Assembly: GCA_030765555.1 (NCBI GenBank)
Contig: JAVCCI010000034.1
Span: forward strand, 1-50,208
Direction of reading: 5' to 3'
Origin: Candidatus Kappaea frigidicola
GTDB lineage: Bacteria; Omnitrophota; Gorgyraeia; JAGLLT01
DNA length: 50,208 nt
Program-made: the position numbers and the translations under genes
Shown here: positions 104 through 38,524 of the stretch, one piece after another
Numbering within the stretch: the stretch's first letter is position 1
How the letters are laid out: each line of letters begins with the position of its first letter
The notes under the pieces: model-generated
What the model saw: the letters and a program-made list of their open reading frames with translations, nothing else
Databases searched by the model: none
What the model was told of the DNA's origin: nothing

Positions 104-1093
104 CATCTTCTTCTCTCTTAACATTAAATCACTTACTGCATTAAGAGGAGATTTATTTTTATAGAGAACTTTATAAATTTCTGTAGTAATCGGCATATTT
201 ATCTTATACTTTTTATTTAATTCATAAACGCTTTTTGTGGTTTTAACACCTTCAGCAACCATATCCATATGTTTTATAATATAATTTAGTTTCTTACCCT
301 CACCTATTTTTTGACCAACATAGTGATTGCGGCTATGACCACTCATGCAAGTAGTAACTAAATCACCCATACCACTTAAACCGTTAAAGGTTTCTTTCTT
401 AGCTCCAAGAGCAACCCCAAAACGAGCCATCTCAACTAAACCCCTGGTCACTATAGCTGCCTTGGCATTCATTCCAAAACCAAGACCATCAGAAATACCA
501 GCAGCAATAGCAATAATATTCTTTAATGATCCCCCTAATTCAACACCACAGAGATCGTTACTGGTATAAGCTCTTAACTTCTCGTTAGTAAATATTTTTT
601 GAAGAATTTTTGCCTGACTAATATTCTTTGAGGCAATAACACAAGTTGCCGGATATCCTCTAGCTACTTCATAAGCTATATTGGGGCCCGAAAGAATGCA
701 TAAATCAACTTTACCAAGCTCTTTATAGACTATTTCAGAGACTCTCTTATGAGACTTTTCTTCTATTCCTTTGGAAACACTCAAAAATATATGTTTCCTA
801 TAATCAGTTTTCTTTATTTTTAAAAGTATCTTTCTGATATAACATGAAGGAACTGCTAAAACAATAATCTCTGAGTTTTCGATAGCCTTTTTTATATCAG
901 ATGTAATTTCAACAGCCTTAGGTATTTTAATCCCAGGTAGAAACTTACTATTTTTTCTGCTTCGACTCAGCGCAGCAGCATATGTCTTAAAAGCAGACCA
1001 GAGTATTACATCATGGCCTTTTTTAGACAAATGAATAGCCAATGTTGTTCCCCAACCACCATCACCAATAATAGATATCTTTTTCATCATCAC
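95..1093 (-). CDS. gpsA: NAD(P)H-dependent glycerol-3-phosphate dehydrogenase
   Basis: 332-aa ORF with an N-terminal Rossmann GxGxxG (ISIIGDGGWGTT) and a GpsA-like pattern along its full length. It follows plsY in a lipid operon. The first ORF codon is GTG, followed by ATGs at 1090 and 1087, so the exact start is uncertain. Confidence 0.9.
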   Translation of the reverse strand: MMMKKISIIGDGGWGTTLAIHLSKKGHDVILWSAFKTYAAALSRSRKNSKFLPGIKIPKAVEITSDIKKAIENSEIIVLAVPSCYIRKILLKIKKTDYRKHIFLSVSKGIEEKSHKRVSEIVYKELGKVDLCILSGPNIAYEVARGYPATCVIASKNISQAKILQKIFTNEKLRAYTSNDLCGVELGGSLKNIIAIAAGISDGLGFGMNAKAAIVTRGLVEMARFGVALGAKKETFNGLSGMGDLVTTCMSGHSRNHYVGQKIGEGKKLNYIIKHMDMVAEGVKTTKSVYELNKKYKINMPITTEIYKVLYKNKSPLNAVSDLMLREKKMED

Positions 1094-1138
1094 GTCGTTA
1101 TTTTAACAGATATTTTCTTTTTTATCAATATAATTATA

Positions 1139-1765
1139 CTATAATTTGATCTTTCTTTCAGTATTAGTCAATAATTTATGCACATTCTGCCTGTGACTAT
1201 AAATCACTATAGAGGCAATTAAAATTCCAAAAATTAGCGCCTCTAAACTTTTTATAAAAATAATTAAACCAATGGGCAGAAAAAGAGCTGCTGCAATCGA
1301 ACCTAAAGATACGTATTTTGAAAAAAAGACAATAATAAACCAAATACAAAAAGCTAATAATAATATGAGGCTGAACTTTACATCGTAGACAGTGAGACCA
1401 ACTAAAACACCTAGAGCAGTTGAAACTCCCTTGCCTCCTTTAAATGATAAAAATATTGTCCATATATGAGCGCATATAACAGTTAAACCTATAACATAAA
1501 CATAGGTTAATTGATCAATGTTTGAATTGTATTGATAAAATAATCTTCCTATTAACGTAACAGCAATGAGGCCTTTTAAAAGATCCAAAATCAAAACACT
1601 CAAACCAGCCTTTTTACCCATAGTTCTTAAGGCATTAGTTGCTCCGATATTACCACTACCTTCTTTACGGATATCAATTTTGGCCCAATATTTAGCAATA
1701 AGATAGCCAAAAGGAATAGCTCCTAATAAATAGGCCAAGATAATACCCATTAGCAATAATATCAT
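1139..1765 (-). CDS. plsY: Glycerol-3-phosphate acyltransferase PlsY
   Basis: 208-aa multi-TM protein with the PlsY signature GSGNIGATNALR. Adjacent to gpsA and pgsA. Confidence 0.9.
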   Translation of the reverse strand: MILLLMGIILAYLLGAIPFGYLIAKYWAKIDIRKEGSGNIGATNALRTMGKKAGLSVLILDLLKGLIAVTLIGRLFYQYNSNIDQLTYVYVIGLTVICAHIWTIFLSFKGGKGVSTALGVLVGLTVYDVKFSLILLLAFCIWFIIVFFSKYVSLGSIAAALFLPIGLIIFIKSLEALIFGILIASIVIYSHRQNVHKLLTNTERKIKL

Positions 1766-26152: not shown

Positions 26153-26193
26153 AAAAAAAAGAGCCATCTTAAATTTCGTTAAAATGGCTCTTT
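26153..26193 (-). terminator. Rho-independent terminator after pilin 1
   Basis: AGAGCCAU-16 nt loop-AUGGCUCU followed by U8 (A8 at 26153-26160 on the plus strand). Confidence 0.8.
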
Positions 26194-26225: not shown

Positions 26226-26666
26226 CTATTCAAGTGGATTAGTGGATGTTAAGTTACCATCCTGGTCAAGCGTATAGACTGACGTACTTGCATCACCGTC
26301 AAGGTCACCAGTTGCTGTAGCAGCAAATGTAGTACCGCCGTCGGCAACCGTTACAGCATACTGATAATAAATTAGGCCTTTAGGCTCAAATCCTATATCA
26401 GTCCAACCAGCTGAAGTGCTTACCCAAGTAGCTTTAACACCCGCTGGAACTGTAGCAGGATTGGCTCCACAAGCTAAATACACATCATTTTCAGCCTTAT
26501 ATGCTTCTTCGCATGTCCTAATAGCACCCAAGCTAGATTTTGCTTCAGAGGTTTTTGCTCTAAGTTGAAAATTAATATAATTAGGTATTGCGATAGTGGC
26601 TAATAAGGCTATAATTGCGACAACAATCATCATTTCAATAAGTGTAAATCCTCTTCGCCTTTTCAT
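26226..26666 (-). CDS. pilA: Type IV major pilin candidate (prepilin)
   Basis: MKRRRG|[36 protein letters not shown] lies 5 nt before the ATG at 26666. An in-frame upstream ATG at 26684 also has an SD. The gene has a near-consensus promoter and a strong terminator. Confidence 0.85.
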
Positions 26667-26706
26667 CTTATTCACCTCCTTCATTTAGATTACCCTCCTT
26701 TAACCT

Positions 26707-26766: not shown

Positions 26767-27984
26767 TTAACTAAATAAATCAGCCATATTAAATATCGGT
26801 AAATAAAGTGCCAAAACTATTCCTCCAATAACCACTCCCAAAACAACAATAACTAAGGGTTCAATCAGCGAAGTCAAACTTTCCACTGTTGTACTCACTT
26901 CATCATCATAAAAATTTGCTACTTTAACAAGCATTTCTTCCAACGAACCAGTTTGTTCTCCGACCGCCACCATTTTAACAACTAATGGTGGAAATATAGG
27001 ACTCTTGGACAGCGGCTGAGCAATGGTCTCTCCTCCTTTAACGCTCTCAAGAACATCCCTAATTACATTCTCAATAACTCTATTGCCGCATGTTTTTGCC
27101 ACAATATCTAGAGAAGTTAATATTGAAACACCACTTTTTGCAAGCGTTGCCAGAGTTCTTGAAAATCTTGATATGGCAACTTTTTTTATTAATTTCCCAG
27201 CTATTGGTAATTTAAGTATTGATCTATCAATTATTTCCCTTCCCTTGTTAGTTTTTCCAATCATTACAAAACCCACGACCAATACAACCATTGATAATAA
27301 AACCAAAATTAAATATTTTGTTACAATAGCACTTGCAGTCATCAATACTTGTGTTGGCCCAGGAAGATCTGCACCAAAACCTGAATAGATTTCAGCAAAA
27401 GAAGGCACCACACTAACCAGCATAAATATAGTTATTCCTACTACAGCTACCATTATAGTAATTGGATAAACTAAAGCAGCTTTAACTTTCTTTTGAAGCT
27501 TACTACTATCTTCAAAGTATGATGCCATACGCATCAAGATATCATCCAACATACCTGAAGCCTCTCCAGCGGAGATCATATTAATGAATAGACTAGAAAA
27601 GGCTTTAGGATACTTACCTAGGGCCTCAGAAAGACTACTTCCTCCCTCAACTGATTCCTTTACTTTTGTGATAAGAAGCTTTAAAGATTTATTTTCAGAT
27701 TGTTCAGATAAAATCTCTAAGCCCTGAACCAAAGGTAAGCCAGCATTAACCATTGTAGCTAATTGTCTAGAGAATACAGCTAGCTCATCAATAGAAATTT
27801 TTACACTTGATAAAGAGGGCATCAAATTAAAAGAAAAAGAAGATTTTTTAAGAGGAGTAATATTGATTATGATTGAAGCTCTGTCTCTCAATAAGCTTGC
27901 AACAACATCCTGATTCGGAGCTTCAATAGAGCCCGTCAGCGTTTTTCCTTGCTTGTCTTTTATAATATATTTAAATTCAGACAT
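26767..27984 (-). CDS. pilC: Type IV pilus platform protein PilC
   Basis: 405 aa with two GspF/T2SSF repeats and three TM segments. Follows the pilB genes. Confidence 0.9.
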   Translation of the reverse strand: MSEFKYIIKDKQGKTLTGSIEAPNQDVVASLLRDRASIIINITPLKKSSFSFNLMPSLSSVKISIDELAVFSRQLATMVNAGLPLVQGLEILSEQSENKSLKLLITKVKESVEGGSSLSEALGKYPKAFSSLFINMISAGEASGMLDDILMRMASYFEDSSKLQKKVKAALVYPITIMVAVVGITIFMLVSVVPSFAEIYSGFGADLPGPTQVLMTASAIVTKYLILVLLSMVVLVVGFVMIGKTNKGREIIDRSILKLPIAGKLIKKVAISRFSRTLATLAKSGVSILTSLDIVAKTCGNRVIENVIRDVLESVKGGETIAQPLSKSPIFPPLVVKMVAVGEQTGSLEEMLVKVANFYDDEVSTTVESLTSLIEPLVIVVLGVVIGGIVLALYLPIFNMADLFS

Positions 27985-27988
27985 AGTT

Positions 27989-29683
27989 TTATTCAGACGT
28001 TATACGAATAACTTCTTCAACAGTAGTAAGACCCATAAGAAACTTTTGAATTGCATTTTCTCGTAAGGTTTTCATACCTTTAGAACGAGCATATTCCTTT
28101 ATATCATCACTTGATGATCTCTTCAATATCATCTCTCTGATAGTGTCATCTATCTCAAGCACTTCTAACGTACCCATTCTTCCACGATAACCTGTCTGAT
28201 TACAATGCTTACATCCAATTGCCTGATAGCCCATAACATCCTTGTCAGTATTAATATCAAGTTTTTCTAATACCTCTTTTGGAACTTTGTACTGCTGGCG
28301 ACATTCAGAACAGACTTTCCTACATAATCTTTGAGCAACCGTTAATATCAAACTTGAAGATATAAGAAATGGCTCAATGCCCATGTCAATTAAGCGAGTT
28401 ATAGCACCCGCTGCATCATTTGTATGCAAAGTGCTAAAAATCAACAAACCTGTCAGAGAAGATTTAATTGCAATATCTGCAGTCTCAGAATCTCTAATTT
28501 CACCCACCATGATTACATCAGGACTTTGCCTTAAAATCGAACGAAGACCTACGGAAAAAGTAAGGCTAATCTCGGGCTTAACTTGAACTTGAGTTATACC
28601 CTCAACTTGATATTCCACCGGATCTTCGATAGTCATCAAATTAACATCTGGTTTATTAATCCTATTCAATATCGAATAAAGAGTTGTAGATTTACCGGAA
28701 CCAGTCGGACCTGTCACTAAAATCATTCCATAAGGATGGGCAATTGCTCTATTAAACGCCGCTAAAGGCTCAGGTAAAAACCCCAGCTTTTCAAGTCCGA
28801 CGCTCAAATTAGATTTATCTAATGCTCTTAAAACTATTTTTTCACCATATGTAATCGGCAAACAGGAAACTCTAAAATCTATATCTTTCTTTTCGAATTC
28901 AATCTTAAACCTGCCATCCTGTGGCATTCTTCTTTCGGTTATATCCATATTGGACATAATTTTTAAGCGTGCTATTAAAGCATTTTGATATTTTTTAGGA
29001 ACTTCAAAGGCCTCTTGCAATTCACCATCAACACGATATCTAATCCTTAAGATATCTTCATATGGCTCTAAATGAATATCACTAGCTCTTCTTTTTAAGC
29101 CTTCAGTAATTATCTTGTTAACTATATTTATAACTGGAATCTTTTCATCAATTTCCAGTTTTTGAACCTGGCTTCTCGCTGGGCCAATCTCTACATCAAC
29201 ACTTCCACTGGACTCTTGAAGCATATCAACTACTTCAGCACCTACTCCTCCGTAATTACGGCTTATAGCACTTTTCATTTCGCTTTCAGATACTATAATT
29301 GGCTTTATTGTCATATTAGTAAGAGTCTTTAAATCATCTAAAGCAAAGATATTTAAAGGATCAGACATAGCTAATGTTAAATTATTACCAATTTTAGACA
29401 CTGGTAAAACATAATAATGTCCAGCTACTTGCTGAGGAATTATTTTTAAAATCTCTGGTGAGATTTTCATCTTAGATAGCTTAATGACCGGCATATCTAA
29501 TTGTTTCGCCAGACAACCCATAAGATGTTCTTCGCTTATCACTCCTTGATGAATAAGAATTTTACTTAAGTGTCCTCCTTCATTCTTTTGGACCTGAATG
29601 GCTTTATCAAGCGCTTCTTGCGATATCAGCTGACTATCAACTAATATCTTTTTTAATTTATCTTCAAAATTTGTACCTGTCAT
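27989..29683 (-). CDS. pilB: Type IV pilus assembly ATPase PilB/GspE family, paralog 2
   Basis: T2SSE_N domain, Walker A GPTGSGKST, Asp/His boxes, and tetra-Cys CSEC...CKHC. 564 aa. Confidence 0.9.
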   Translation of the reverse strand: MTGTNFEDKLKKILVDSQLISQEALDKAIQVQKNEGGHLSKILIHQGVISEEHLMGCLAKQLDMPVIKLSKMKISPEILKIIPQQVAGHYYVLPVSKIGNNLTLAMSDPLNIFALDDLKTLTNMTIKPIIVSESEMKSAISRNYGGVGAEVVDMLQESSGSVDVEIGPARSQVQKLEIDEKIPVINIVNKIITEGLKRRASDIHLEPYEDILRIRYRVDGELQEAFEVPKKYQNALIARLKIMSNMDITERRMPQDGRFKIEFEKKDIDFRVSCLPITYGEKIVLRALDKSNLSVGLEKLGFLPEPLAAFNRAIAHPYGMILVTGPTGSGKSTTLYSILNRINKPDVNLMTIEDPVEYQVEGITQVQVKPEISLTFSVGLRSILRQSPDVIMVGEIRDSETADIAIKSSLTGLLIFSTLHTNDAAGAITRLIDMGIEPFLISSSLILTVAQRLCRKVCSECRQQYKVPKEVLEKLDINTDKDVMGYQAIGCKHCNQTGYRGRMGTLEVLEIDDTIREMILKRSSSDDIKEYARSKGMKTLRENAIQKFLMGLTTVEEVIRITSE

Positions 29684-29686
29684 CTT

Positions 29687-31414
29687 CTAATCAACCGTCA
29701 CTCTCAATATCTCTTCTAAACTTGTTATGCCTCTCATAGCTTTTAATAAACTATTTTCGCGTAAGTTATGCATGCCCTCTTTTCTGGCTTGCTCAGCTAT
29801 TAACGATTCAGCCTCTTTCTTAATAATCATATCTTTAATAGTAGGTGATAAAATAAAAGCTTCACTAATTACTGTTCGACCTTTATATCCTGTATTTTTA
29901 CAATTAGGGCATCCCTTACCTTTAAAAAATTCACCTATGGTAATATTCATTTTTTTTTCAAATTCCACAAGACCCAAATCTTTACGCATAGCCTCAGTTA
30001 CTTTATAAGATTCCTTGCACTCTGGACATATCTTCCTAACTAATCTTTGAGCTAAAAACAAAAGGCAAGATGAAGTAATTAAAAAAGGTTCAACACCCAT
30101 ATCCACCAATCTAATAACTGAACCTGCAGCAGAAGTTGTATGTAGAGTGCTCAAAACTAAATGCCCCGTAAGAGCTGATTTAATAGCTACATCTACCGTT
30201 TCAAAGTCTCTAATTTCACCAACCATAATCACATCGGGATCTTGTCTCAATATAGATCTTAAAGCGCTGGCAAAAGTTAACCCGGACTCCGGCAAAGATG
30301 TTACCTGATTAATTCCATAAAGCTCATATTCAACTGGATCTTCAACTGTCACTAAGTTTTTTGTAGGTTTATCAATAAATTGAAGTATAGAATAAAGTGT
30401 TGTTGTTTTTCCGCAACCCGTAGGACCACAGGCTATTATCATGCCATGCGGTTTTAAAGCATTTGATTTAATCTTCTCTAATGCATCATCTTCAAATCCA
30501 AGCTTATCAATTTCTAATGAGGCAGTAGACTTATCTAATACGCGCAAAGCAATTTTCTCACCAAAGATCGAAGGCAAAACTGATACTCTATAATCAACAT
30601 CTCGTTTAGAAACTTTTGCTTTAAACCTACCATCTTGGGGTAATCTATGCTCAGAAATATTGAGGTTGCTCATAACTTTAATTCTTGAAACTAAAGCATT
30701 GTGAAGTGATTTAGGAACAGGAGGACTATCCTCTAAAATACCATCTATTCTATATCTAACCGAGGTTTTCTTTTCCTGTGGCTCTATTAAAACATCACTT
30801 GCTCCTCTATTTACAGCTTCAGTAAGAATAAAGTTAGTTAATCTAACAACAGGCTTTTCACCCATTTTTTCTAGTAGCGCCTCAGCATCATGTACTACGT
30901 CTTCTTTAGTCACTTTAACATTCTTTAAAAGCGCAGTCTCATTTTCTTTTAGAAACGAATCAAATTTATCAGCCGCTGCAGGTTCATAATACTTATCTAA
31001 AGCACTCATAATCTCATCTTCAGTGCTTATAATCGGTTGTATTGTAAATTTAGTTAAAGTTTTAATATCGTCGATAGCAAAAACGTTGAGAGGGTCAGCC
31101 ATGGCAATGGTAAGCGTATTACCTATCTTAGATACCGGCATGAAAATATAGCGCCTGGCCAGGTCCTCAGGAATTAAACTAACTACATCTTTATTAATCC
31201 TTACTTTTTTTAGAGAAATAGGTGGAATCCCCAACTTTTGGCTAAGCGCAGCCATTAGATCATCTTGATTAACAAACTTATTAGTTATTAATATATCACG
31301 TAATTTACCCTTTTTTTCTTTTTGAATTTTAAGAGCTTCATCAAGCTGCTCTTGGGATAACAGCTTTGTATCAATTAAAATTTGGACTAACTCTTCTTTT
31401 AAACTTTTAGACAT
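29687..31414 (-). CDS. pilB: Type IV pilus assembly ATPase PilB/GspE family, paralog 1
   Basis: T2SSE_N domain, Walker A variant GPTGCGKTT, and tetra-Cys CPEC...CPNC. 575 aa. Confidence 0.9.
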   Translation of the reverse strand: MSKSLKEELVQILIDTKLLSQEQLDEALKIQKEKKGKLRDILITNKFVNQDDLMAALSQKLGIPPISLKKVRINKDVVSLIPEDLARRYIFMPVSKIGNTLTIAMADPLNVFAIDDIKTLTKFTIQPIISTEDEIMSALDKYYEPAAADKFDSFLKENETALLKNVKVTKEDVVHDAEALLEKMGEKPVVRLTNFILTEAVNRGASDVLIEPQEKKTSVRYRIDGILEDSPPVPKSLHNALVSRIKVMSNLNISEHRLPQDGRFKAKVSKRDVDYRVSVLPSIFGEKIALRVLDKSTASLEIDKLGFEDDALEKIKSNALKPHGMIIACGPTGCGKTTTLYSILQFIDKPTKNLVTVEDPVEYELYGINQVTSLPESGLTFASALRSILRQDPDVIMVGEIRDFETVDVAIKSALTGHLVLSTLHTTSAAGSVIRLVDMGVEPFLITSSCLLFLAQRLVRKICPECKESYKVTEAMRKDLGLVEFEKKMNITIGEFFKGKGCPNCKNTGYKGRTVISEAFILSPTIKDMIIKKEAESLIAEQARKEGMHNLRENSLLKAMRGITSLEEILRVTVD

Positions 31415-31422
31415 TATTTATT

Positions 31423-31938
31423 TTATTCTTTCTTTTCCCTATCAGCACTATCAACTTGTCTGGGAGCATTACCAAAGTTGAATTTTGAAACATCCGTTTG
31501 TTCTGCTTGTTGATGTTTGCCATAAAAACGATCCAGGGCTCTACTTATATCACTTGCAGTACTAACAAAGGGAGTAACCTTACACCCCGTTAAATATTCG
31601 ATATCCCTAATGGCAAAGTCGTTCAAAGGATCAGCCATTACAGCAGTTAAGATATTACCAATTTTATCAATTGGTACTAAAAAGTACTGCCTAGCTACAT
31701 GTTCGGGCACCATTTTAACTGCTTCTGGATTAACATCATAATTTTCCAGCGGCATATAAGGAAAACCATATTGATCTGCCAAAGACATAACAAGATCTTG
31801 CTCACTCATGAATTTAAGTTCAATTAGAATTTGACCAATAAGACCGCCCTTTTCTTTTTGATACTTCAAAGCGTTCTCTAATTGATCAGAAGTAATTATT
31901 TTTTTATCAATTAGAAGTTGGCCAAGTTGTTTTTTCAT
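31423..31938 (-). CDS. Stand-alone T2SSE_N / MshEN-like domain protein (no ATPase domain)
   Basis: 171 aa that aligns by eye with the N-termini of both PilB paralogs (KIGNILTAVMADPLNDFAIRDIEYLTG vs KIGNTLTIAMADPLNVFAIDDIKTLT). Tandem 24-residue xLGxxLI...L...L..Q motifs are separated by a 5-residue spacer. Confidence 0.75.
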   Translation of the reverse strand: MKKQLGQLLIDKKIITSDQLENALKYQKEKGGLIGQILIELKFMSEQDLVMSLADQYGFPYMPLENYDVNPEAVKMVPEHVARQYFLVPIDKIGNILTAVMADPLNDFAIRDIEYLTGCKVTPFVSTASDISRALDRFYGKHQQAEQTDVSKFNFGNAPRQVDSADREKKE

Positions 31939-31956: not shown

Positions 31957-34900
31957 TCAACCATTATTATTCTGATGGCGTTCAATAGACTCATATGCTT
32001 TTTTTGCTTTCCTTCTGACTTCTTGATTACTATATTCCATATATGATTTCAAACTAGGTAAACAAGATGGGTCTTTAATAAAACCCATTATTTCAATAAT
32101 ATTGCTAATCTCTTCAGCTTCTTTAGTTGCTGAGATTCTATATCTTAGTATCTCAGAAGTTTTCTTAGGATATTTTTTTAAAAAAACACTAACATATTGA
32201 CGGTTAAAATAAGCATCAAAGGGATCTATCTTCTTATTAACAGACAAAATAACATCTAGAAGAGGTTCAACTGTAGCCTCTTGTGCTAATTCTAAAATAT
32301 GCATAGCACCAGTCAATATTTTTTTATCTACCTTACCACCAAATATAGCAACTACATTTTCCAAGGCTTGCTTATCAGTTGCTGTTTTTAATACTTTCTG
32401 AAGTAATGCTTTGTGGGGCTCTGATAAATCATTCTTCTCATCTAGAATTTTTTTTACTTTATCAAGCAATTGCCCTGCATTAACAAAACTTTTATTGTTT
32501 AAATACCCGGCAACCAACTTAATCAAGGCTTTAATGTATTCTTCATAAATTTCTGGATCTTGCTCCTGCTCCATTACACCTAAAATAAAATCTACGATAA
32601 ATTTCAGAGTTTTAATTGCCTCATTAGAAGCCAATATATCAATAACACTCATTAAATTAGATGAGATATAACCTCTTACTTGTTTTTTTTCTGATTTTAA
32701 ATTGTTTAATATCTTCCCAAGCACACCTATAACTTCACCTTCTCTAGAATCAGCTAACAAATCATAAAAAACTTGCTTTGTGCTTTCTAAAACATCCTGA
32801 TCAAGAAAAGCTTCAGACCCCAGCTCTTTAATTTTTACAATTTTCTCATCCGAACTTAATTCTCTCCACAAATCAGGCTTTAATAGGTTGAGAATTTGCT
32901 CATCCGATAGGCCACTTTTATGGAAATCCGGCTTAATCAAATTCAACACTTTGCCCCTTTTCTCTTCCTCAGGAAGAAAGCGTCGAACATAATCCTTGAG
33001 ATCATCAAAAGTTAGCTTTTGTTCCTTAAAACGTACGGCTTCTTGTTTTAAGAAAGTTGAAATTTCATCATCAGACATATTGATAAAAGCATTACTTACA
33101 TCTTCAGGAGAAATACCTATGTTTTTTAAATTTTTCTGGCGCAAAATTTTAGAACGTAGATCAGGCTGCAAACTTAAAATAAACTTAGGAAGATTTTCCT
33201 CATATTTACGTTTAGCTTCTTCATCCTCAGTAGATACCTCTTCATTAATTTTCTTTAAACCCTGCCCAACCATATTTACTTTTTCATCTAAATCCATCTT
33301 GCTGTAATCAACATCCTGTGAACTTCCTTCATTTTCACTAGGACCCTCTGATATAATCTTTGCTAAATAATTAGGGTCTTGACTAAATAAATCCAACATA
33401 GACACTTGAGATCCAGCATCCGCTTGTGGCCTTCCTAACATATAATTAATTAACATAACCTCATTAATTTTCCTCTTTTTATCCTGAGTTCTACCAAGCT
33501 GTTTTTTAAGCATTTTTTCATAATGAACCATGTTGACTTTTATCTTATTAATATTATTAGCATTAAATATTTCTGGCAGGCTGCCTAAATCTTCAATTTC
33601 AGAAGTTTTTTTAGATAAAGATGAAAATAATGTATCCAGCTCTCTCAAAACTATTCCTTTTTCAAAAGAAAGTGATTGTATTCTGTAGTCTTTAAGAAGT
33701 TTTCCCAAGCTGTCCGCGATTGTATTTTTTATTTCGCGGCTTTTCAATTCTCTGCCATTAACCAAGAGAAAACCTTCAACTTCTGAAAAAGAAATAACAC
33801 CATATTTATTAAATAATTGAGCCAGTAAATTATAAAATTCATTAGTTGAATCAGACCTCACCTTACTACCGGCTGGATAAAGGCTAAAATTAACAATTCC
33901 AGTTTTAAGAGATACTATTAATTGTGAAACAATACCAAAATCTTCATTTTTTAATGGTTCTACTGCTAATGCTAATTCTTCCTCTTCTTCATCTTTTAGA
34001 CCCGCCAATTCCTGAGATAACACTTGTTGTAAATATTGATTAGCTTCAACTGGATTAAAGCTTTTATCCGCTTTAGCTTGAGCTATCTTAGAATAATTAT
34101 TAGCTTTAGTGCTATCCTTTGCTTTCTTAAAATGATATGCCAAAAGACTTGCAATAGCTTGGGGATTAGCCGAACTTGTTTCTTCTGCAATTTGGGCAAA
34201 CTTTCCATGAAGTTTATCACGCTCTTCTTCCTTAATCTGAGCATAAACAACTTCCCAGAGTAATTTATTCCTAAAAGCATGTATGACTTGACCATCAGCT
34301 TCTCTTGATTCTATTAGTCTTTCATTAACAGCTCTATCTATCATCTCCTCAATGTAGCCAGGATTCTTACCGATCATTTTTTGCAAAGGCTCTAAAGTGA
34401 ACTCTTGTCCAAGGATTGCCGCATTAGACAAGAACTGCCTAGTCTCCTCATCCATATTCTTAACTTTTTGCTCAAGTATCTGCTTAATACCCGAAGAAAG
34501 ATCTTCATCCTTAACTTCCTTGTGCTGCCAAGATCCATCTTTAAAAAAGACCACTTCCTTTTCAACAAAATGTTTTAATGATTCTTCAATGAAATAAGGA
34601 TTACCCTCTGTTCTAGTGCAAAACTTCTGAAGCAATTCTGGGTCAAACTGCATCCCCTCAAATATTGCCATCACCATAGACTGGGTTTCTTCAGAATTAA
34701 ACGGTTTTAATTCAATATTGATAGTATTTTCATCTTTTTGCAATTTCTCAAATTGCTCTTTTAGTTCAGATTCATGCTCTAATCTTCTTTGTAATTCAGA
34801 TGGCCTTAAAGCCCCCATAAAAGCAATTTTTTTATCTTTACGATTAACCAACATGTAATTTATCAAAGAAGCTGTGGCCATATCGACCCACTGAAAATTA

Positions 34901-35982
34901 TCGAAACTAACTAAAAATTGTTTAACATCAGATATCTTACATAATAAATTTACTAAACCATTGAATAGGTTAAATCTAGAATTTTTATCATCAACTTTAT
35001 TTATATCAATTTTTTTTGAAGTGTATTCTGATAGGGCAGGCTCTAAATCGAAAAGCTGCGCAACTTCTTCATCCGCCAAGGAATCCATAATCACTTTAGC
35101 ATCACCTTTAAGCGATTTTAAAAATCTTTCAAGATTAGCTGATAAAACCTGATATGGTTGATCGGAAATTGCCTCTGTGCATCTAGCCGTAAAACACAAA
35201 CTTTCTTTTTCGAAAGCATATTTTCTGATCTCCGATTGCAATCGTGTCTTACCTAAACCTGCCTCTGCAGATAAAAAAACGGCCTTTGAAATACTCTCAT
35301 TAAAACATACATCTAAAACTTGCTTTATTTTAGATAATTCTACTGATCTAGCTATAATTCTCTGGCATGGAAAAATTTCTAAAATTTTATTTTTATTTAA
35401 AATGTCTTCAGGAACATCAGCAAAAACAGAAACCTGATTACGTCCACTACGCTTTGACAAATATAAGGCTTCATCAGCTCTATATATTAATTTTTCAGCG
35501 TCCTGAGCATCGCGCGGAAAAACTGCCATTCCTAAACTCAGCGTTAAGGTTAAATCCGGCTGCCCCTCATCACCAACAAACGAATATTGAGAAACTTTAC
35601 CAATGAGTCTCTTAGCAATTTTTAGAGAATCACCTTCTTCTGCTGTAGGAAGCATAACAACGAATTCATCTCCTGCATACCTAATAATCTCATCTGAATC
35701 TCTAAAACTTTCTCTTAGCAAGTTAGATACTTCCGTCAAAACCTTGTCCCCTCTTTGATGTCCATATGTATCATTGACATCTTTAAATTTATCAACGTCA
35801 ATCATAAATAATGATAGAGGATAATCGCTCCTCACAGCCTGCCTGATAATCTCCGGCAAACGCTTATTCAGATATCTGCGATTATGTAGTTTGGTTAAAT
35901 CGTCTTTATATATTAACTCTTGCGCTTCAAGCGCATCATGCTCTATCTGTGATTGATCTTGTTTGCGACGTTCTTCCTGCAT
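31957..35982 (-). CDS. Giant multidomain signalling protein: GGDEF (AGDEF active site plus RxxD I-site), AAA_16/STAND P-loop NTPase, helical repeats, C-terminal HEAT-like repeats
   Basis: aa 25-187 form a GGDEF domain (RDSDEIIRYAGDEFVV). aa 205-470 form a STAND/AAA_16-like module (AEAGLGKTRL Walker A, LVSFDNFQWVD Walker B, TEGNPYFIEE). The C-terminus carries a PSCLPSLKSYMEYSNQEVRRKA HEAT/PBS-lyase-like repeat. Confidence 0.8.
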   Translation of the reverse strand: MQEERRKQDQSQIEHDALEAQELIYKDDLTKLHNRRYLNKRLPEIIRQAVRSDYPLSLFMIDVDKFKDVNDTYGHQRGDKVLTEVSNLLRESFRDSDEIIRYAGDEFVVMLPTAEEGDSLKIAKRLIGKVSQYSFVGDEGQPDLTLTLSLGMAVFPRDAQDAEKLIYRADEALYLSKRSGRNQVSVFADVPEDILNKNKILEIFPCQRIIARSVELSKIKQVLDVCFNESISKAVFLSAEAGLGKTRLQSEIRKYAFEKESLCFTARCTEAISDQPYQVLSANLERFLKSLKGDAKVIMDSLADEEVAQLFDLEPALSEYTSKKIDINKVDDKNSRFNLFNGLVNLLCKISDVKQFLVSFDNFQWVDMATASLINYMLVNRKDKKIAFMGALRPSELQRRLEHESELKEQFEKLQKDENTINIELKPFNSEETQSMVMAIFEGMQFDPELLQKFCTRTEGNPYFIEESLKHFVEKEVVFFKDGSWQHKEVKDEDLSSGIKQILEQKVKNMDEETRQFLSNAAILGQEFTLEPLQKMIGKNPGYIEEMIDRAVNERLIESREADGQVIHAFRNKLLWEVVYAQIKEEERDKLHGKFAQIAEETSSANPQAIASLLAYHFKKAKDSTKANNYSKIAQAKADKSFNPVEANQYLQQVLSQELAGLKDEEEEELALAVEPLKNEDFGIVSQLIVSLKTGIVNFSLYPAGSKVRSDSTNEFYNLLAQLFNKYGVISFSEVEGFLLVNGRELKSREIKNTIADSLGKLLKDYRIQSLSFEKGIVLRELDTLFSSLSKKTSEIEDLGSLPEIFNANNINKIKVNMVHYEKMLKKQLGRTQDKKRKINEVMLINYMLGRPQADAGSQVSMLDLFSQDPNYLAKIISEGPSENEGSSQDVDYSKMDLDEKVNMVGQGLKKINEEVSTEDEEAKRKYEENLPKFILSLQPDLRSKILRQKNLKNIGISPEDVSNAFINMSDDEISTFLKQEAVRFKEQKLTFDDLKDYVRRFLPEEEKRGKVLNLIKPDFHKSGLSDEQILNLLKPDLWRELSSDEKIVKIKELGSEAFLDQDVLESTKQVFYDLLADSREGEVIGVLGKILNNLKSEKKQVRGYISSNLMSVIDILASNEAIKTLKFIVDFILGVMEQEQDPEIYEEYIKALIKLVAGYLNNKSFVNAGQLLDKVKKILDEKNDLSEPHKALLQKVLKTATDKQALENVVAIFGGKVDKKILTGAMHILELAQEATVEPLLDVILSVNKKIDPFDAYFNRQYVSVFLKKYPKKTSEILRYRISATKEAEEISNIIEIMGFIKDPSCLPSLKSYMEYSNQEVRRKAKKAYESIERHQNNNG

Positions 35983-35990
35983 TTATAATA

Positions 35991-37067
35991 CTAAACTCCT
36001 GATTTCAACATTCTTTTTAAATCATCTATTTCACTTGTTCTGGCAATTGCATCTTCGTAAGTTATTTTTTGGGTTTGATATAATTCATACAAACTTTGAT
36101 TCATTGTCTTCATACCTTCTTTTTGCGAAGTTTGAATTACAGAATATATTTGATGAACCTTCCGGTCTCTTACCAAGCTTCTTACAGCAGCTGTTAATTT
36201 CAAAACCTCTAATGCCAATACTCTACCAGTAGTTTCCGTTTTAGGAACTAATTGCTGAGCTAAAACAGCATTTAGAACAAATGATAACTGCACCCTTGCC
36301 TGTTCCTGCTGGTGTTGAGGAAATACGTCAATAATCCTGTTAATTGTCTGAGCGGAATCTGATGTATGCAAAGTAGCTAAAACGAGATGTCCTGTTTCAG
36401 CAGCATTCAAAGCCAATTCTATACTTTCTAAATCTCTCATTTCACCAACTAGAATCACATCGGGATCCTGCCTAAGAACATGCTTAAGAGCTGTTGCAAA
36501 AGAATGCGTATCATGACCAACTTCTCGTTGATCAATTACAGCTTTTTTACCCTCATATATATACTCAATAGGATCTTCAATCGTTACAATATGAACCGGC
36601 CTATCATTATTAATGAACTCAACCATTGAAGCTAATGTAGTTGATTTTCCACTACCAGTAGCTCCAGTCACTAATACTAACCCCTTATTTTTCTTACACA
36701 AATCCACCAAAACATTTACCGGTAATCCACATTCTTCAAAAGACATTATATGGGCTGGCAGCACCCTAAGGGCCATACCTAAATTACCTCTTTGATAAAA
36801 CATATTTGCTCTAAAACGAGCCTCATCCCCTAACCCAAAAGACATATCAAGCTCTAAATCTTTTTCTAATTTTTGCTTTTGATCCTCACTAAGCAAGGTA
36901 TAAATCAAAGATTTAATTTCTTCATTTGAAAGCTTATCGTACTCACATGGGATTAGTTTTTCATCAATTCTTATGTGCGGGGGGGAACCTACGGATAAAT
37001 GTAAATCTGACGCACCTTTTTTTATAAGTAAATTTAAGAGTTCTTTTAAATCTGTTAACTTTGCCAA
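35991..37067 (-). CDS. pilT: Type IV pilus retraction ATPase PilT
   Basis: 358 aa. GASDLHLSVGSPP, Walker A GATGSGKST, and no N-terminal T2SSE_N domain. TTG start codon 5 nt after SD AAGGAGGT. Confidence 0.9.
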   Translation of the reverse strand: MAKLTDLKELLNLLIKKGASDLHLSVGSPPHIRIDEKLIPCEYDKLSNEEIKSLIYTLLSEDQKQKLEKDLELDMSFGLGDEARFRANMFYQRGNLGMALRVLPAHIMSFEECGLPVNVLVDLCKKNKGLVLVTGATGSGKSTTLASMVEFINNDRPVHIVTIEDPIEYIYEGKKAVIDQREVGHDTHSFATALKHVLRQDPDVILVGEMRDLESIELALNAAETGHLVLATLHTSDSAQTINRIIDVFPQHQQEQARVQLSFVLNAVLAQQLVPKTETTGRVLALEVLKLTAAVRSLVRDRKVHQIYSVIQTSQKEGMKTMNQSLYELYQTQKITYEDAIARTSEIDDLKRMLKSGV

Positions 37068-37099: not shown

Positions 37100-38524
37100 T
37101 TAAGCGTATATTTTATTGCCTTCTTCAGACTGACCTTTTGTTAAAAGCATTTTTGCCTTACTAATCAGCTCTTCGCCCCTCATACCATCAATCGGATTTG
37201 ATGTTACCGCACCACTAATACTAATCTTTTTATTAGGCATTTCCTCTTGATTAGCAAATTCAAATTCCTCGATCATTTGCCTAACTTTATCAGCTATCAG
37301 ATGCGCCTCGCGCTTATTCCTTTCTGGAAGTATCATTGCAAATTGACTATGATCAAAGCGGGCTACTTTATCAATTTGGTCAGCGCTAGTTTTCAAGATT
37401 GAAGCAACTCTTTTTAAAATATCTTCAGCAGAGGCTTTTCCAAATTTATCTTCATACAAATCAAAATTATCAATATCAAACAAGATAAATGAACAAGGTC
37501 TTTGATAGGTTATCGATCTCTCAATTTCTTCATTCAGTCTCTCTTTAGCAAATTTAACATTAAAGAGACCGGTTAGCTCATCACTCACGGATAATTCTTC
37601 TGTTCTTTTCATTAGCCAATTATTTTCTAAGGCAATGGAAACCTGCTTACTAAATACACTCATTAGATCAATGTCATCATCTGTAAATGAAAAACTTTCT
37701 TTATTGTTTCCTAATATTAAAGCACATTGAACTTCACCGTGAAGAATAACGGGAAATTCAATCACATTCTTTAGTGCTAATTTATTTGATAATACCTTAG
37801 TAACATTTGTAATTTTGTGCTGAGCATCAAATATGAGAGTTTCTCGCTGCTTAGATATCCTTGACAAAACCCCCTCGGAAAAATCTTTTTCAAGACTTTC
37901 AATCTCTTCAGGCTTGAGATTACTAGTCGCCTTAAGCCTAACAGTTGCATTCTTATCATCAAAAATAGCCAGAAAACTTTTCTCACAATCCATAACGTCT
38001 GGTAAACGCTCGATAACAGTTTGAAGGATTATATTTAAATCCTTGGCGCTTGACATAATACTACTAACCTGAAAAAGCGTCGAAAGAGCGGTCATCTTTT
38101 GATTTATTTCAAGATTAATACCCCTAATCCTCTCTTCATATCCCTTTAAAGTATCAACGTTACTTGTAAGCCTAGAAGCCATCTTATTAATCGAATAGCT
38201 CAAATCTCCAATTTCATCCTCCCTGTTAACTGGAATTTCCTGGAAATCATTGCCATCATTATAAAGCCTAACCTTTTCAGCTATTTCAATAACTGGCTCT
38301 ACAATGCTCTTAGCTATCAACAAACCCAAAACAGTTATTACGATAGTTATTAAGAGTATTAAGGATATATCTCCCATAACAAAAAATTCATTTTTATAAA
38401 CATATACGCTAATAATTACACCGCAGACTAATAGCGGCACGACAGACATGAGGCTAAAGGCAAGAATAAGTTTGTACCTTAAACCCTTAGGCATAAGAGA
38501 TATGCTCTTAAATATATTACCCAT
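37100..38524 (-). CDS. Membrane sensor: 2 TM, HAMP, GAF, degenerate GGDEF domain
   Basis: HAMP (EDEIGDLSYSINKMASRL), a GAF-like middle region, and a GGDEF-fold C-terminus. The signature is replaced by DHSQF (37340-37354) and the I-site position reads DQID. Confidence 0.75.
   Translation of the reverse strand: MGNIFKSISLMPKGLRYKLILAFSLMSVVPLLVCGVIISVYVYKNEFFVMGDISLILLITIVITVLGLLIAKSIVEPVIEIAEKVRLYNDGNDFQEIPVNREDEIGDLSYSINKMASRLTSNVDTLKGYEERIRGINLEINQKMTALSTLFQVSSIMSSAKDLNIILQTVIERLPDVMDCEKSFLAIFDDKNATVRLKATSNLKPEEIESLEKDFSEGVLSRISKQRETLIFDAQHKITNVTKVLSNKLALKNVIEFPVILHGEVQCALILGNNKESFSFTDDDIDLMSVFSKQVSIALENNWLMKRTEELSVSDELTGLFNVKFAKERLNEEIERSITYQRPCSFILFDIDNFDLYEDKFGKASAEDILKRVASILKTSADQIDKVARFDHSQFAMILPERNKREAHLIADKVRQMIEEFEFANQEEMPNKKISISGAVTSNPIDGMRGEELISKAKMLLTKGQSEEGNKIYA

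Follow-up and report, generated by a model that had tools for sequence, protein, structure and literature searches.

STAND proteins in which a class III nucleotide cyclase precedes AAA_16 and TPR modules (the TIGR03903 TOMM kinase/cyclase fusions and the mycobacterial Rv0386-type cyclases) are among the nearest known types to the protein described here. Both carry a dimer-requiring cyclase N-terminal to an AAA_16 NOD, a lid, a winged helix, an arm and repeats. Unlike the class III cyclase-STANDs, however, our 1341-residue protein has a GGDEF effector, which would yield a cyclic dinucleotide in place of cAMP or cGMP, and a putative sensor made of an alpha/beta insert and an ARM/HEAT solenoid instead of TPRs. 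It lacks a kinase or LuxR domain and belongs to a clade encoded in a pilus operon. E. coli MalT, the archetype of the MalT-clade STAND proteins, shares the NOD-to-winged-helix order, whereas its effector is a C-terminal LuxR helix-turn-helix domain and its sensor is SUPR/TPR-like, and the similarity between the two proteins is weak. MalT-type STAND proteins convert from an ADP-closed monomer to an ATP-open multimer, and the same logic would be expected here.

With respect to the effector, PleD, WspR and DgcR have the same catalytic and I-site residues, pair their GGDEF domains by induced oligomerization and are subject to product inhibition through RxxD. They are switched on when an N-terminal REC domain is phosphorylated and a stalk helix relays the signal, whereas in our protein GGDEF is the most N-terminal domain and is followed in the chain by the P-loop NOD that presumably serves as the switch. 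The AGDEF A-site also occurs together with an RxxD I-site in Vibrio cholerae VCA0965, which is enzymatically active (PMC3974145). That protein, however, is small, sits in the membrane with five transmembrane helices and lacks a STAND module; the two AGDEF motifs probably arose independently.

MshEN domains of pilus extension ATPases, such as V. cholerae MshE and T. thermophilus PilF, are c-di-GMP receptors, as we propose here, and local signalling by E. coli DgcJ-NfrB illustrates that a dedicated cyclase can pair with an MshEN effector. Our locus differs from these in having an extra free-standing MshEN gene right after the cyclase, and from known receptors in the replacement of the position-1 arginine in both motifs, c-di-GMP binding being predicted. 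Finally, a study of the predatory Bdellovibrio reportedly linked a repeat scaffold and a GGDEF-family protein (MglA-Bd2492(TPR)-CdgA) to type IV pilus function. That pilus-pole hub consists of separate proteins with a degenerate GGDEF domain and no NOD; a relative of the C-terminal module of our protein adjoins mglA/mglB-like genes, which recalls the hub.

Overall architecture

The gene lies in a window of 50,208 nucleotides from an uncultured Omnitrophota-type bacterium, the whole stretch analysed here (Table 1), and its product matches a 100%-identical database cluster (P0001). AlphaFold models (pLDDT 87) resolve four parts in series: an AGDEF-type GGDEF domain; a P-loop STAND NOD, which carries a helical lid and a winged helix; a helical arm, after which comes the LYP alpha/beta insert of ~120 residues; and an ARM/HEAT-like solenoid of ~500 residues. 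The preliminary description, which had called a GGDEF domain, an AAA_16/STAND-type NOD and a HEAT-like C-terminus, is borne out, and a script run on the open reading frame recovered all of its motif positions.

Table 1. Positions in the window of the 1341-residue protein gene, its parts and the neighbouring genes
Feature	Coordinates	Strand	Basis
HAMP-GAF protein with degenerate GGDEF, first gene of the tight block	37100..38524	minus	Pfam
PilT retraction ATPase, 8 bp upstream of the 1341-aa gene	35991..37067	minus	T2SSE; TIGR01420
GGDEF-STAND-solenoid gene, 1341 aa	31957..35982	minus	ORF, ATG start, Pfam, full-length relatives
GGDEF domain, aa 26-183	35434..35907	minus	Pfam E 2.7e-43
Primary I-site RDSD, aa 94-97	35692..35703	minus	script and alignment to PleD R359xxD362
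A-site AGDEF, aa 103-107	35662..35676	minus	script-checked motif
NOD, P-loop alpha/beta core aa 210-424 and helical lid aa 430-474	34561..35355	minus	
Walker A AEAGLGKT, aa 239-246	35245..35268	minus	conserved P-loop motif
Walker B region LVSFDNFQWVD, aa 357-367	34882..34914	minus	
Lid motif GNPYFIEE (GxP signature), aa 460-467	34582..34605	minus	
Beta-hairpin and winged-helix domain, aa 478-570	34273..34551	minus	AlphaFold, pLDDT 82-93
Helical arm, aa 573-700	33883..34266	minus	AlphaFold helices 573-699
Conserved alpha/beta insert, aa ~700-820	33523..33885	minus	AlphaFold and alignment
All-alpha ARM/HEAT-like solenoid, aa ~837-1341	31960..33474	minus	AlphaFold, pLDDT mostly >85
Stand-alone MshEN protein, 171 aa, 18 bp downstream of the 1341-aa gene	31423..31938	minus	Pfam MshEN
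PilB-type extension ATPase 1, N-terminal MshEN	29687..31414	minus	T2SSE and MshEN
PilB-type extension ATPase 2, N-terminal MshEN	27989..29683	minus	T2SSE and MshEN
PilC platform protein	26767..27984	minus	T2SSF E 1.5e-65

The GGDEF domain is apparently catalytic

A helix (aa 2-23) precedes the GGDEF domain, which matches DosC (E 3e-36) and PleD (E 5.5e-32) among PDB sequences and superimposes on the DosC GGDEF domain with a target-normalised TM-score of 0.90 and an rmsd of 1.5 Å (Foldseek). The AGDEF signature and the intact RxxD I-site noted previously are both in place, exactly five residues (EIIRY) apart. Residues D62, K67, N70, D79 and R101 align with PleD D327, K332, N335, D344 and R366, and D105, E106, K177 and R181 with E370, E371, K442 and R446; at the I-site, R94, D97 and R125 (the secondary I-site arginine) align with R359, D362 and R390. 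Each PleD residue involved in catalysis, guanine specificity or the I-site has a counterpart here. The catalytic and guanine-specificity residues are invariant over 36-60 relatives, the A-site residues A103, G104, D105 and E106 are so in both the 36- and the 60-sequence alignments, and the I-site residues are less conserved. Moreover, D79 (PleD D344) argues for GTP as substrate and therefore for c-di-GMP rather than a Hypr-type product. VCA0965, itself an AGDEF enzyme, makes c-di-GMP in vitro, and the first A-site position tolerates A, G, M or H (PMC3974145). On these residue matches, the domain is apparently an active c-di-GMP synthase, and the case for the catalytic competence that had been thought plausible is stronger than first put.

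A STAND-type NOD with winged helix and arm

An AAA_16/STAND module had been placed at aa ~205-470, and the Pfam AAA_16 model indeed matches aa 210-381 above its gathering score (E 2.7e-12, 47.9 bits versus 32.6). The region spanning aa 209-673 also matches TIGR03903 over its NOD-to-arm part (E 5.7e-34). The NOD core is built on strands 233-238, 262-267, 356-361, 386-392 and 420-424 in the AlphaFold model. All three motifs proposed from the sequence, AEAGLGKTRL (aa 239-248), LVSFDNFQWVD and GNPYFIEE, fall within this module. Walker A residues G242, G244 and K245 are invariant in the alignments of 36 and 60 relatives, while its first position is alanine in the query subclade and glycine in most relatives. 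In the Walker B region, conservation of D361 is at least 90%; D367 does not vary among the 36 close relatives and stays at 90% conservation or above in the 60; and the second acidic position is occupied by N362. Since the query subclade combines N362 with an alanine at the first glycine position of Walker A, ATP turnover may be slow or absent. In the lid, G460 is invariant, P462 and F464 reach at least 90% conservation, and E467 reaches at least 90% or is invariant.

The winged-helix region comprises helices within 499-553 with hairpins 478-487 and 557-570 on either side, and conserves W485, G525 and F570 in the 36-sequence alignment. Comparison with MalT using hhalign runs collinearly between Walker B and the winged helix (227 columns, E 1.6e-4), with a probability of only 50%, and aligns the Walker B region with MalT LYLVIDDYHLI. 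Recorded annotations of relatives include faint matches to nSTAND, NB-ARC and TPR_MalT (the MalT-type repeat sensor), and a search of the NOD profile against PDB sequences returned generic P-loop proteins only. At this level of similarity, the protein can be placed in the MalT clade only tentatively.

The C-terminal half comprises an alpha/beta insert and a solenoid

The ~800 residues of helical repeats described initially correspond to the arm and the solenoid, but these two are separated by the alpha/beta insert and by short disordered linkers. The insert contains strands at aa ~729-735, 738-741, 768-774 and 814-818, and L701, Y702, P703 and N742 within it do not vary across the 36 aligned sequences; it has no Pfam match and no PDB match by profile search. 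The model of aa 640-1341 (pLDDT 86.5) resembles a designed ARM protein, SF3B1, PP2A-A and importins (Foldseek E 8e-6 to 5e-4). HEAT repeats are weak by sequence in this protein, with HEAT_2 at aa 1293-1329 (E 0.046) below the Pfam gathering score, but the assignment is upheld by these solenoid matches and by the HEAT_2, HEAT or Arm matches on record for most relatives. The C-terminal ~620-residue module is also found free-standing and joined to cNMP-binding and PilZ domains, and its relatives occur beside pilD and mglA/mglB-like genes.

The gene lies in a pilus operon next to MshEN proteins

As the preliminary description held, the gene sits inside a pilus ATPase operon. It follows pilT and precedes the small MshEN gene, pilB1, pilB2 and pilC, with gaps of 3-18 bp; from the degenerate-GGDEF gene through pilC the gaps are 3-32 bp, and the block lies within a full T4aP cluster. 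PilT scores 475 bits against TIGR01420 (cut-off 319), and PilB1 and PilB2 score 632.7 and 643.4 bits against TIGR02538. NF053729 ("c-di-GMP motif, MshE-related"), a curated NCBI model of a 53-residue c-di-GMP-binding motif, is passed by the MshEN neighbours, with 64.1 bits for the 171-residue protein (NCBIfam cut-off 38), 45.2 for PilB1 and 48.7 for PilB2. The small MshEN proteins nevertheless lack the position-1 arginine in both 24-residue motifs, and the MshEN domains of PilB1 and PilB2 also lack the position-3 glycine. Motif-like sequences can fail to bind, as for PilF GSPII-A (PMC12002112). We regard the 171-residue protein as a candidate c-di-GMP receptor.

The only other GGDEF protein of the block, the HAMP-GAF-GGDEF neighbour, is degenerate, with DHSQF at its A-site and no RxxD; its gene is conserved in loci L001-L004 and L012. 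In the window and in five independent loci (L001, L012, L013/L014, L015 and L019; 26-87% identity), the large gene is followed at once by a gene for a stand-alone MshEN protein of 148-171 residues, amid pilB, pilB and pilC.

A widespread GGDEF-AAA_16 cassette

The architecture had been thought unusual. It is not rare: a GGDEF domain lies directly upstream of the AAA_16 P-loop in 109 of the best 120 clusters (90% identity), mostly from Omnitrophota and with several phyla represented. Common as it is, we found no paper in the literature characterising it, and public automatic annotation labels these proteins "diguanylate cyclase". Across differing C-terminal architectures, AGDEF is present in 108 of the 109 cassette GGDEF domains and a steady 118-139 residues separate the A-site from Walker A, with an RxxD I-site in 48 of the members. 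Pilus genes are absent from the surroundings of distant members from Planctomycetota, Desulfatibacillaceae and a metagenome contig (L018), and also from those of the member on one Omnitrophota contig (L005), which indicates that the pilus link is clade-specific and not a property of the architecture.

A proposed ATP-gated local cyclase and its alternatives

A cyclase-STAND-solenoid fusion directly before a candidate c-di-GMP receptor in a pilus operon looks like a local pilus-signalling switch. With confidence a little above even, we propose that the protein is an ATP- and oligomerization-gated local c-di-GMP source for the pilus motor, the gating by oligomerization being suggested by analogy with the STAND family. 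It would be a cytoplasmic STAND-type signalling ATPase with an AAA_16/MalT-like NOD and a product-inhibited AGDEF cyclase as its N-terminal effector. At rest, the NOD would be bound to ADP and the protein monomeric, so that the GGDEF reaction, which takes two GTP and two domains, would be impossible. The C-terminal sensor (LYP insert and ARM/HEAT solenoid) would bind a ligand, most likely a pilus-machinery protein or the adjacent small MshEN protein, upon which the NOD would open, exchange ADP for ATP and multimerize. The clustered GGDEF domains would pair to make c-di-GMP, with the RxxD I-site capping output. The c-di-GMP may then act locally on the co-encoded MshEN domains of the 171-residue protein and of both PilB N-termini, the response of which would tune type IV pilus extension versus PilT retraction. 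If true, this would be an uncharacterised way of locally turning on pilus signalling.

Alternatively, the solenoid and the LYP insert could dock the AGDEF cyclase at the pilus base as a scaffolded, essentially constitutive local enzyme, with the NOD a static nucleotide-binding module and regulation confined to I-site feedback and expression. Such a role fits the loss of the second Walker B acidic residue, the altered Walker A of the query subclade, the intact I-site and the independence of the C-terminal module, whose occurrence near pilD and mglA/mglB-like genes suggests protein docking tied to pili and polarity. We consider it unlikely, since G242, G244, K245, D361, D367, G460 and P462 stay invariant or reach at least 90% conservation in relatives at ~25% identity, a pattern that points to selection for nucleotide binding and switching beyond the fold. 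Furthermore, a single GGDEF domain that lacks a partner for dimerisation normally shows no activity (PleD, WspR, DgcZ).

The non-canonical first A-site residue and the presence of RxxD would also suit a GGDEF domain acting as a nucleotide sensor, its input being the binding of c-di-GMP (I-site) or GTP (A-site) and its output being exerted by the STAND-HEAT part on the pilus motor via protein contacts. Many A-site variants elsewhere are receptors, and the degenerate neighbour indicates that this genome keeps non-catalytic GGDEF domains. This reading is distinctly improbable in our view, because D62, K67, N70, D79, D105, E106 and K177, which are catalytic and not just binding residues, are invariant family-wide and AGDEF is active in VCA0965. 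The cassette also combines a fixed A-site with an RxxD in fewer than half of its members (48/109), where a pure I-site receptor would be expected to show the reverse, and the effector of STAND proteins is the terminal non-repeat domain. STAND NTPases with an N-terminal effector and a C-terminal repeat sensor form one of the major classes of immune receptors in bacteria. GGDEF domains are known, rarely, from other NTP-dependent conflict systems (PMC7159879). An Avs-like anti-phage sensor, with c-di-GMP or GTP depletion as an alarm or abortive output and a pilus neighbourhood that is incidental or related to pilus-dependent phages, nonetheless seems to us very improbable. The protein and its neighbour match no PADLOC family, the content of the 50-kb window is all housekeeping, with no mobile or defence genes, and, unlike in defence islands, gene order is vertically conserved in the core pilus/mre cluster over deep divergence.

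Domain architecture of the giant protein

The giant gene is an ORF of 1341 codons on the minus strand (31957-35982), and a chance origin is excluded by its length of 4 kb at a DNA G+C content of 34% together with two domain matches above threshold. The motifs quoted in the preliminary description, which had proposed a GGDEF domain fused to a STAND-type AAA_16 module and a long helical tail, all lie where it had placed them: RDSD at aa 94-97, AGDEF at aa 103-107 (35662-35676), AEAGLGKTRL at aa 239-248, LVSFDNFQWVD at aa 357-367 and GNPYFIEE at aa 460-467. Its domain calls are borne out by Pfam matches above threshold for GGDEF and AAA_16 and by a solenoid in the AlphaFold model. The '800 aa of helical repeats' that it described is broadly right and misses an alpha/beta insert at aa ~700-820, which is apparent in the AlphaFold model. 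The models, computed with a 60-sequence family alignment, have a pLDDT of 87.4 for aa 1-700 and 86.5 for aa 640-1341.

Features of the giant protein, of its chromosomal neighborhood and of loci holding its relatives (P numbers denote the relative proteins, with identity to the giant protein)
Feature	Position, counterpart or content	Strand	Basis or remark
Short N-terminal helix	aa 2-23		AlphaFold
GGDEF domain	aa 26-183		Pfam E 2.7e-43; Foldseek
P-loop alpha/beta core, five strands	Walker A after strand 1; Walker B on strand aa 356-361		AlphaFold
Helical lid with conserved G460-N-P462	aa 430-474		AlphaFold
Hairpin and winged helix	aa 478-570		AlphaFold
Helical arm	aa 573-700		AlphaFold
Alpha/beta insert (LYP insert), ~120 aa	aa ~700-820; 33523-33885	-	AlphaFold
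Short disordered linkers	between insert and solenoid		AlphaFold
All-alpha solenoid	aa ~837-1341		AlphaFold, Foldseek
D62	PleD D327		alignment
K67	PleD K332		alignment
N70	PleD N335		alignment
D79	PleD D344		alignment
R94xxD97	PleD R359xxD362		alignment
R101	PleD R366		alignment
A103-G-D-E-F107 (D105, E106)	PleD G368-G-E-E-F372 (E370, E371)		alignment
R125	PleD R390		alignment
K177	PleD K442		alignment
R181	PleD R446		alignment
Gene order, part 1	ileS, lspA, lgt, rluD	-	
Gene order, part 2	murA, mreB, mreC, mreD, pbp2, rodA	-	
Gene order, part 3	HAMP-GAF-GGDEF gene, pilT, giant, small MshEN, pilB1, pilB2, pilC	-	
Gene order, part 4	two pilin genes, pilM, pilN, pilO, pilP-like, pilQ	-	
Gene order, part 5	RNase G, L21, obg, proB, proA	-	
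Promoter-like site, 10/12	100-bp gap after rodA, upstream of HAMP-GAF-GGDEF gene		scan at chance level overall
Terminator-like hairpin, 15 pairs then T-run	26158-26193	-	scan at chance level overall
L001	87% identity		window arrangement up to contig end within pilB2
L012	P0017, 30% identity		mreB-pilQ order as in window; extra 108-aa ORF after rodA
L013/L014	P0036, 26% identity		pilB, pilB, giant, MshEN (155 aa), pilC
L019	P0033, 26% identity		pilB, pilB, giant, MshEN (153 aa), pilC
L015 (closed 1.8-Mb Omnitrophota genome CP070807)	P0045, 27% identity		histidine kinase, response regulator, giant, MshEN (148 aa), T2SSE, pilB, pilC

A conserved pilus operon surrounds the giant gene

The window is housekeeping chromosome, in which all ORFs with an assigned function lie on the minus strand across 50 kb and the plus-strand GC skew is uniformly negative (-0.13 to -0.30). 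Gaps of 3-32 bp separate the genes from the HAMP-GAF-GGDEF gene to pilC. A promoter and terminator scan of the window returned counts at chance level; the strong terminator-like hairpin that it detected lies shortly behind the first pilin gene (26226-26684), and after it a gap of 229 bp precedes the second pilin gene. Such hairpins are common at major pilin genes.

Context look-ups of the loci holding relatives, combined with a local phmmer map, reveal that a stand-alone MshEN gene (148-171 aa) directly follows the giant gene in the window and in L001, L012, L013/L014, L015 and L019. A conserved operon that unites the giant gene with a free-standing MshEN gene and twin pilB genes in Omnitrophota is the chief addition of this work. 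The pilus link is a property of one clade and not of the architecture as such, since no pilus genes occur within 8-10 kb of the relatives at L016 (Planctomycetota), L017 (Desulfatibacillaceae), L018 and L005 (Omnitrophota), the first three of which align over 57-60% of the query.

Two tandem full-length PilB-type extension ATPases, each with an MshEN N-domain, are a shared feature of the clade beside the free-standing MshEN protein, and are encoded in the window (27989-31414, minus strand), L012, L013 and L019. At L015 the first ATPase (420 aa) is devoid of an MshEN domain, so the small MshEN protein of this locus could be a split-off PilB N-domain. Most named relatives are from Omnitrophota, and the closest ones reside on MAG contigs assigned to Omnitrophota or 'Planctomycetia' (identities of 79-87%). 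L001 (CAYQKA010000001.1, 87%) carries the label 'uncultured Planctomycetia' and L002 (DAOVJY010000010.1, 79%) 'Candidatus Omnitrophota'; one of these two labels is probably wrong.

The block holds a further GGDEF gene, encoding a 473-474-aa HAMP-GAF-GGDEF protein and kept upstream of pilT in L001-L004 and L012. The window protein (37100-38524, minus strand; sequence …VARFDHSQFAMILPE…) has DHSQF at its A-site and no RxxD, and is probably a membrane-anchored, non-catalytic GGDEF protein. We rejected it as a second cyclase on account of this A-site; as it has neither a GGDEF motif nor an I-site, the giant protein is the only plausible source of c-di-GMP in the block. No EAL or HD-GYP phosphodiesterase was found among the window ORFs scanned.

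MshEN neighbors as candidate c-di-GMP receptors

The published MshEN motif consists of two copies of RLGxx(L/V/I)(L/V/I)xxG(L/V/I)(L/V/I)xxxxLxxxLxxQ with a five-residue separation (PMC5013675). The 53-position NCBIfam motif model NF053729 (cut-off 38 bits) matches the window small MshEN protein with 64.1 bits, PilB2 with 48.7 and PilB1 with 45.2. The small MshEN proteins, PilB1 and PilB2 all fall outside both residue patterns, the strict one and the relaxed one from the literature. Each half of the window small MshEN protein agrees with the relaxed motif at 9 of 11 positions (8-10 in its relatives), and the five-residue spacer is kept in this protein and at L012, L013 and L019, with seven residues at L015. 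Position 1 is Q, L or M in the MshEN proteins examined, none of which has R, K, P or N there, and PilB1 and PilB2 additionally have no glycine at position 3. Escherichia coli NfrB, which RefSeq describes as a c-di-GMP-activated glycosyltransferase, has a proline at position 1 of motif I, and the GSPII-A domain of PilF illustrates that a near-consensus sequence can fail to bind (PMC12002112). Judged by these motifs, c-di-GMP binding by the small MshEN protein is plausible, and binding by PilB1 and PilB2 is less certain.

A very probable diguanylate cyclase with product inhibition at the N-terminus

The giant GGDEF domain scores 159.5 bits against TIGR00254 (cut-off 37.4), and Foldseek matches it to the DosC GGDEF domain with a TM-score of 0.90 (target-normalized) and an r.m.s.d. 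of 1.5 Å. The first glycine of the A-site is replaced (AGDEF), with G104, D105, E106 and F107 intact, and the I-site RxxD (R94-D-S-D97), five residues ahead of AGDEF, is accompanied by R125. The alignment with PleD, in the residue numbering and with the residue roles of the PleD literature, has a constant offset of 265, and the metal, phosphate and guanine contacts of PleD are all matched (D62, K67, N70, D79, D105, E106, K177, R181). Across the 36- and 60-sequence family alignments, every catalytic and guanine-specificity residue is invariant except R181, which was compared with PleD only.

The AG(D/E)EF signature accounts for 1.56% of GGDEF domains, and the AGDEF protein VCA0965 of Vibrio cholerae is active, position 1 tolerating A, G, M or H (PMC3974145). 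Since the PleD residues are kept and AGDEF supports activity in VCA0965, the giant GGDEF domain very probably acts as a diguanylate cyclase subject to product inhibition. The conserved aspartate that corresponds to PleD D344 speaks for GTP as the substrate and c-di-GMP as the product, and we rejected a Hypr-GGDEF assignment (cGAMP synthase) because this aspartate is invariant.

Support for a STAND assignment of the P-loop module

The Pfam AAA_16 match spans aa 210-381 with 47.9 bits against a gathering score of 32.6. The Walker A motif AEAGLGKT fits [AG]x4GK[ST], with G242, G244 and K245 invariant and the first glycine changed to alanine in the query subclade. In Walker B (LVSFD361-N362) the first aspartate is conserved, and the second acidic residue is an asparagine in the query subclade and D/E in most relatives. 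The lid with its conserved G460-N-P462, followed by a winged helix (aa 499-570) with hairpins, is seen in the AlphaFold model alone. The overall layout places an effector (GGDEF) at the N-terminus and a sensor (ARM/HEAT solenoid) at the C-terminus, as in STAND proteins, and between aa 209 and 673 the protein matches TIGR03903, a TOMM kinase/cyclase fusion representing class III cyclase STANDs, from its NOD to its arm (E 5.7e-34; NOD, P-loop core plus lid). Assignment of the giant protein to the STAND ATPases of AAA_16 type is well supported.

Membership in the MalT clade specifically is only suggested. Aligning the family profile with E. coli MalT using hhalign yielded 227 collinear columns (E 1.6e-4, probability 50%), from Walker B (LYLVIDDYHLI versus LVSFDNFQWVD) through the winged helix, and relatives have faint recorded matches to nSTAND, NB-ARC and TPR_MalT (the MalT-type repeat sensor). 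Searched against PDB sequences, the NOD profile (A4) retrieved generic P-loop proteins only (Cdc6/ORC, ClpC, an archaeal ATPase and a plant NLR at E 0.045) and neither MalT nor AfsR. The 50 best Foldseek PDB matches listed for the aa 1-700 model are all GGDEF domains; the list is saturated by this domain and bears on the NOD in neither direction.

The insert and solenoid form a mobile module

HEAT_2 matches the giant protein below threshold (aa 1293-1329, E 0.046; 14.4 bits, with a threshold of 27.7), and HEAT repeat profiles score above threshold in its relatives. Foldseek matches of the solenoid comprise a designed armadillo protein, SF3B1, PP2A-A and importins (E 8e-6 to 5e-4), with a probability of 1.00 but low TM-scores of 0.2-0.3. 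No Pfam family matches the insert, whose residues L701-Y702-P703 and N742 do not vary across the 36 aligned sequences, and the insert profile (A5) retrieved no relative from the PDB, only designed proteins and EF-hand noise.

A search with aa 690-1341 alone against 1.84 billion representatives returned 293 matches at E <= 1e-3, of which 80 reach E <= 1e-10. Besides the giant family itself (1300-1450 aa), these comprise two groups. In the first, of 640-770 aa, the module begins at residue ~15-50 and Pfam sees HEAT_2 only; its member P0148 is a free-standing module and a complete gene on its contigs. In the second, cNMP_binding follows the module, either alone or together with PilZ (P0254, P0230). 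The insert and solenoid travel together as a unit of ~620 aa, and its free-standing and cNMP_binding/PilZ-fused forms establish that this unit is mobile between architectures. The gene for P0230, which has both cNMP_binding and PilZ (L023, 7001-10276), lies between those for a prepilin peptidase (PilD) and for mglB-like (Roadblock/LC7) and mglA-like (small GTPase) proteins, a context that hints that in another lineage the module is linked with the control of pili and polarity. Its mobility and its recurrence near pilus and polarity genes favor a protein-docking or protein-sensing role.

A putative STAND switch with a diguanylate cyclase effector

The best-supported reading makes the giant protein a STAND switch whose effector is a diguanylate cyclase, and we infer the individual steps from the STAND paradigm (MalT, Apaf-1) and from cyclase enzymology (PleD, WspR). 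Binding of a trigger to the insert and solenoid would release the NOD, ADP would be exchanged for ATP, and the ensuing multimerization would cluster the N-terminal GGDEF domains, which, as known from PleD and WspR, must pair for condensation of two GTP. Output would be capped by RxxD feedback, and the co-encoded MshEN proteins would sense the signal at the pilus motor. The position of the GGDEF domain at the extreme N-terminus is an unusual topology that makes upstream stalk-helix input unavailable, and hence control must come from the C-terminal side. In characterized diguanylate cyclases, N-terminal sensors (REC, PAS, GAF, globin or membrane domains) pair C-terminal GGDEF domains via a stalk helix, whereas the giant cyclase sits N-terminal to a STAND NOD. 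A cyclase on such a NOD would bring a different principle, namely nucleotide-exchange-driven, all-or-none multimerization, which is the logic of NLRs, Apaf-1 and MalT and would here serve the production of c-di-GMP. Were its activity ATP-independent, the protein would simply join the multidomain diguanylate cyclases that carry a repeat scaffold.

Less likely alternatives are a constitutive cyclase that is merely scaffolded by the rest of the protein and a GGDEF domain that serves as a sensor. An anti-phage function, as in Avs-like STAND proteins, is disfavored: PADLOC defence models did not match, and the context, made up of housekeeping genes and the pilus cluster, is vertically conserved. 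Returning to the STAND-cyclase switch, we put forward tentatively, as a joint proposal that is on balance doubtful, a self-contained local c-di-GMP circuit in the Omnitrophota T4P operon, in which the LYP/HEAT sensor would engage a pilus-machine or contact-dependent partner, the ATP-driven STAND switch would assemble the AGDEF cyclase domains, and a dedicated MshEN reader would act alongside the twin PilBs. If true, this would be the first NOD-type oligomerization gating of a diguanylate cyclase and possibly a contact sensor by which ultra-small and perhaps host-dependent bacteria decide whether to extend or retract their pili. Omnitrophota, to our knowledge a phylum without genetics, have pili that are thought important for host or surface attachment, and the kept adjacency of the giant gene, the free-standing MshEN gene and two pilB genes makes for a clear case in which local c-di-GMP signaling can be put to the test.

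The AGDEF-NOD pair is an old and widespread cassette

A word-indexed search returned 658 matches to the giant protein. Among the best 120 clusters (90% identity), 109 have the GGDEF A-site 118-139 residues upstream of Walker A, and the motif is AGDEF in 108 of these 109 cassette proteins. The near-universal motif and the constant spacing identify the AGDEF-NOD pair as a cassette of two domains that is old and fixed rather than an isolated fusion, and provide a large natural data set on the dispensability of the first glycine. The architecture is common in metagenomes; the initial interpretation stands for the domains and the likely activity, and fails where it regarded the fusion as unusual in the sense of rare. 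A literature search found no paper characterizing or discussing a STAND-type diguanylate cyclase, and named source records nearly always read 'diguanylate cyclase'. The giant protein combines known kinds, STAND signaling ATPases and diguanylate cyclases, in a sizeable, uncharacterized family.

The majority of cassette proteins are of the GGDEF-AAA_16-HEAT type and 1170-1450 aa long; they stem from Candidatus Omnitrophota, with further members in Planctomycetota and Thermodesulfobacteriota. In the six proteins whose GGDEF domain is C-terminal (Pkinase-AAA_16-GAF-GGDEF), the A-site reads GGDEF or GGEEF. The second cassette architecture, HD-GYP-GGDEF-AAA_16-TPR (~1600 aa; P0097-P0120, for example from Gemmatimonadaceae), unites a predicted c-di-GMP phosphodiesterase and a cyclase on a single STAND scaffold.
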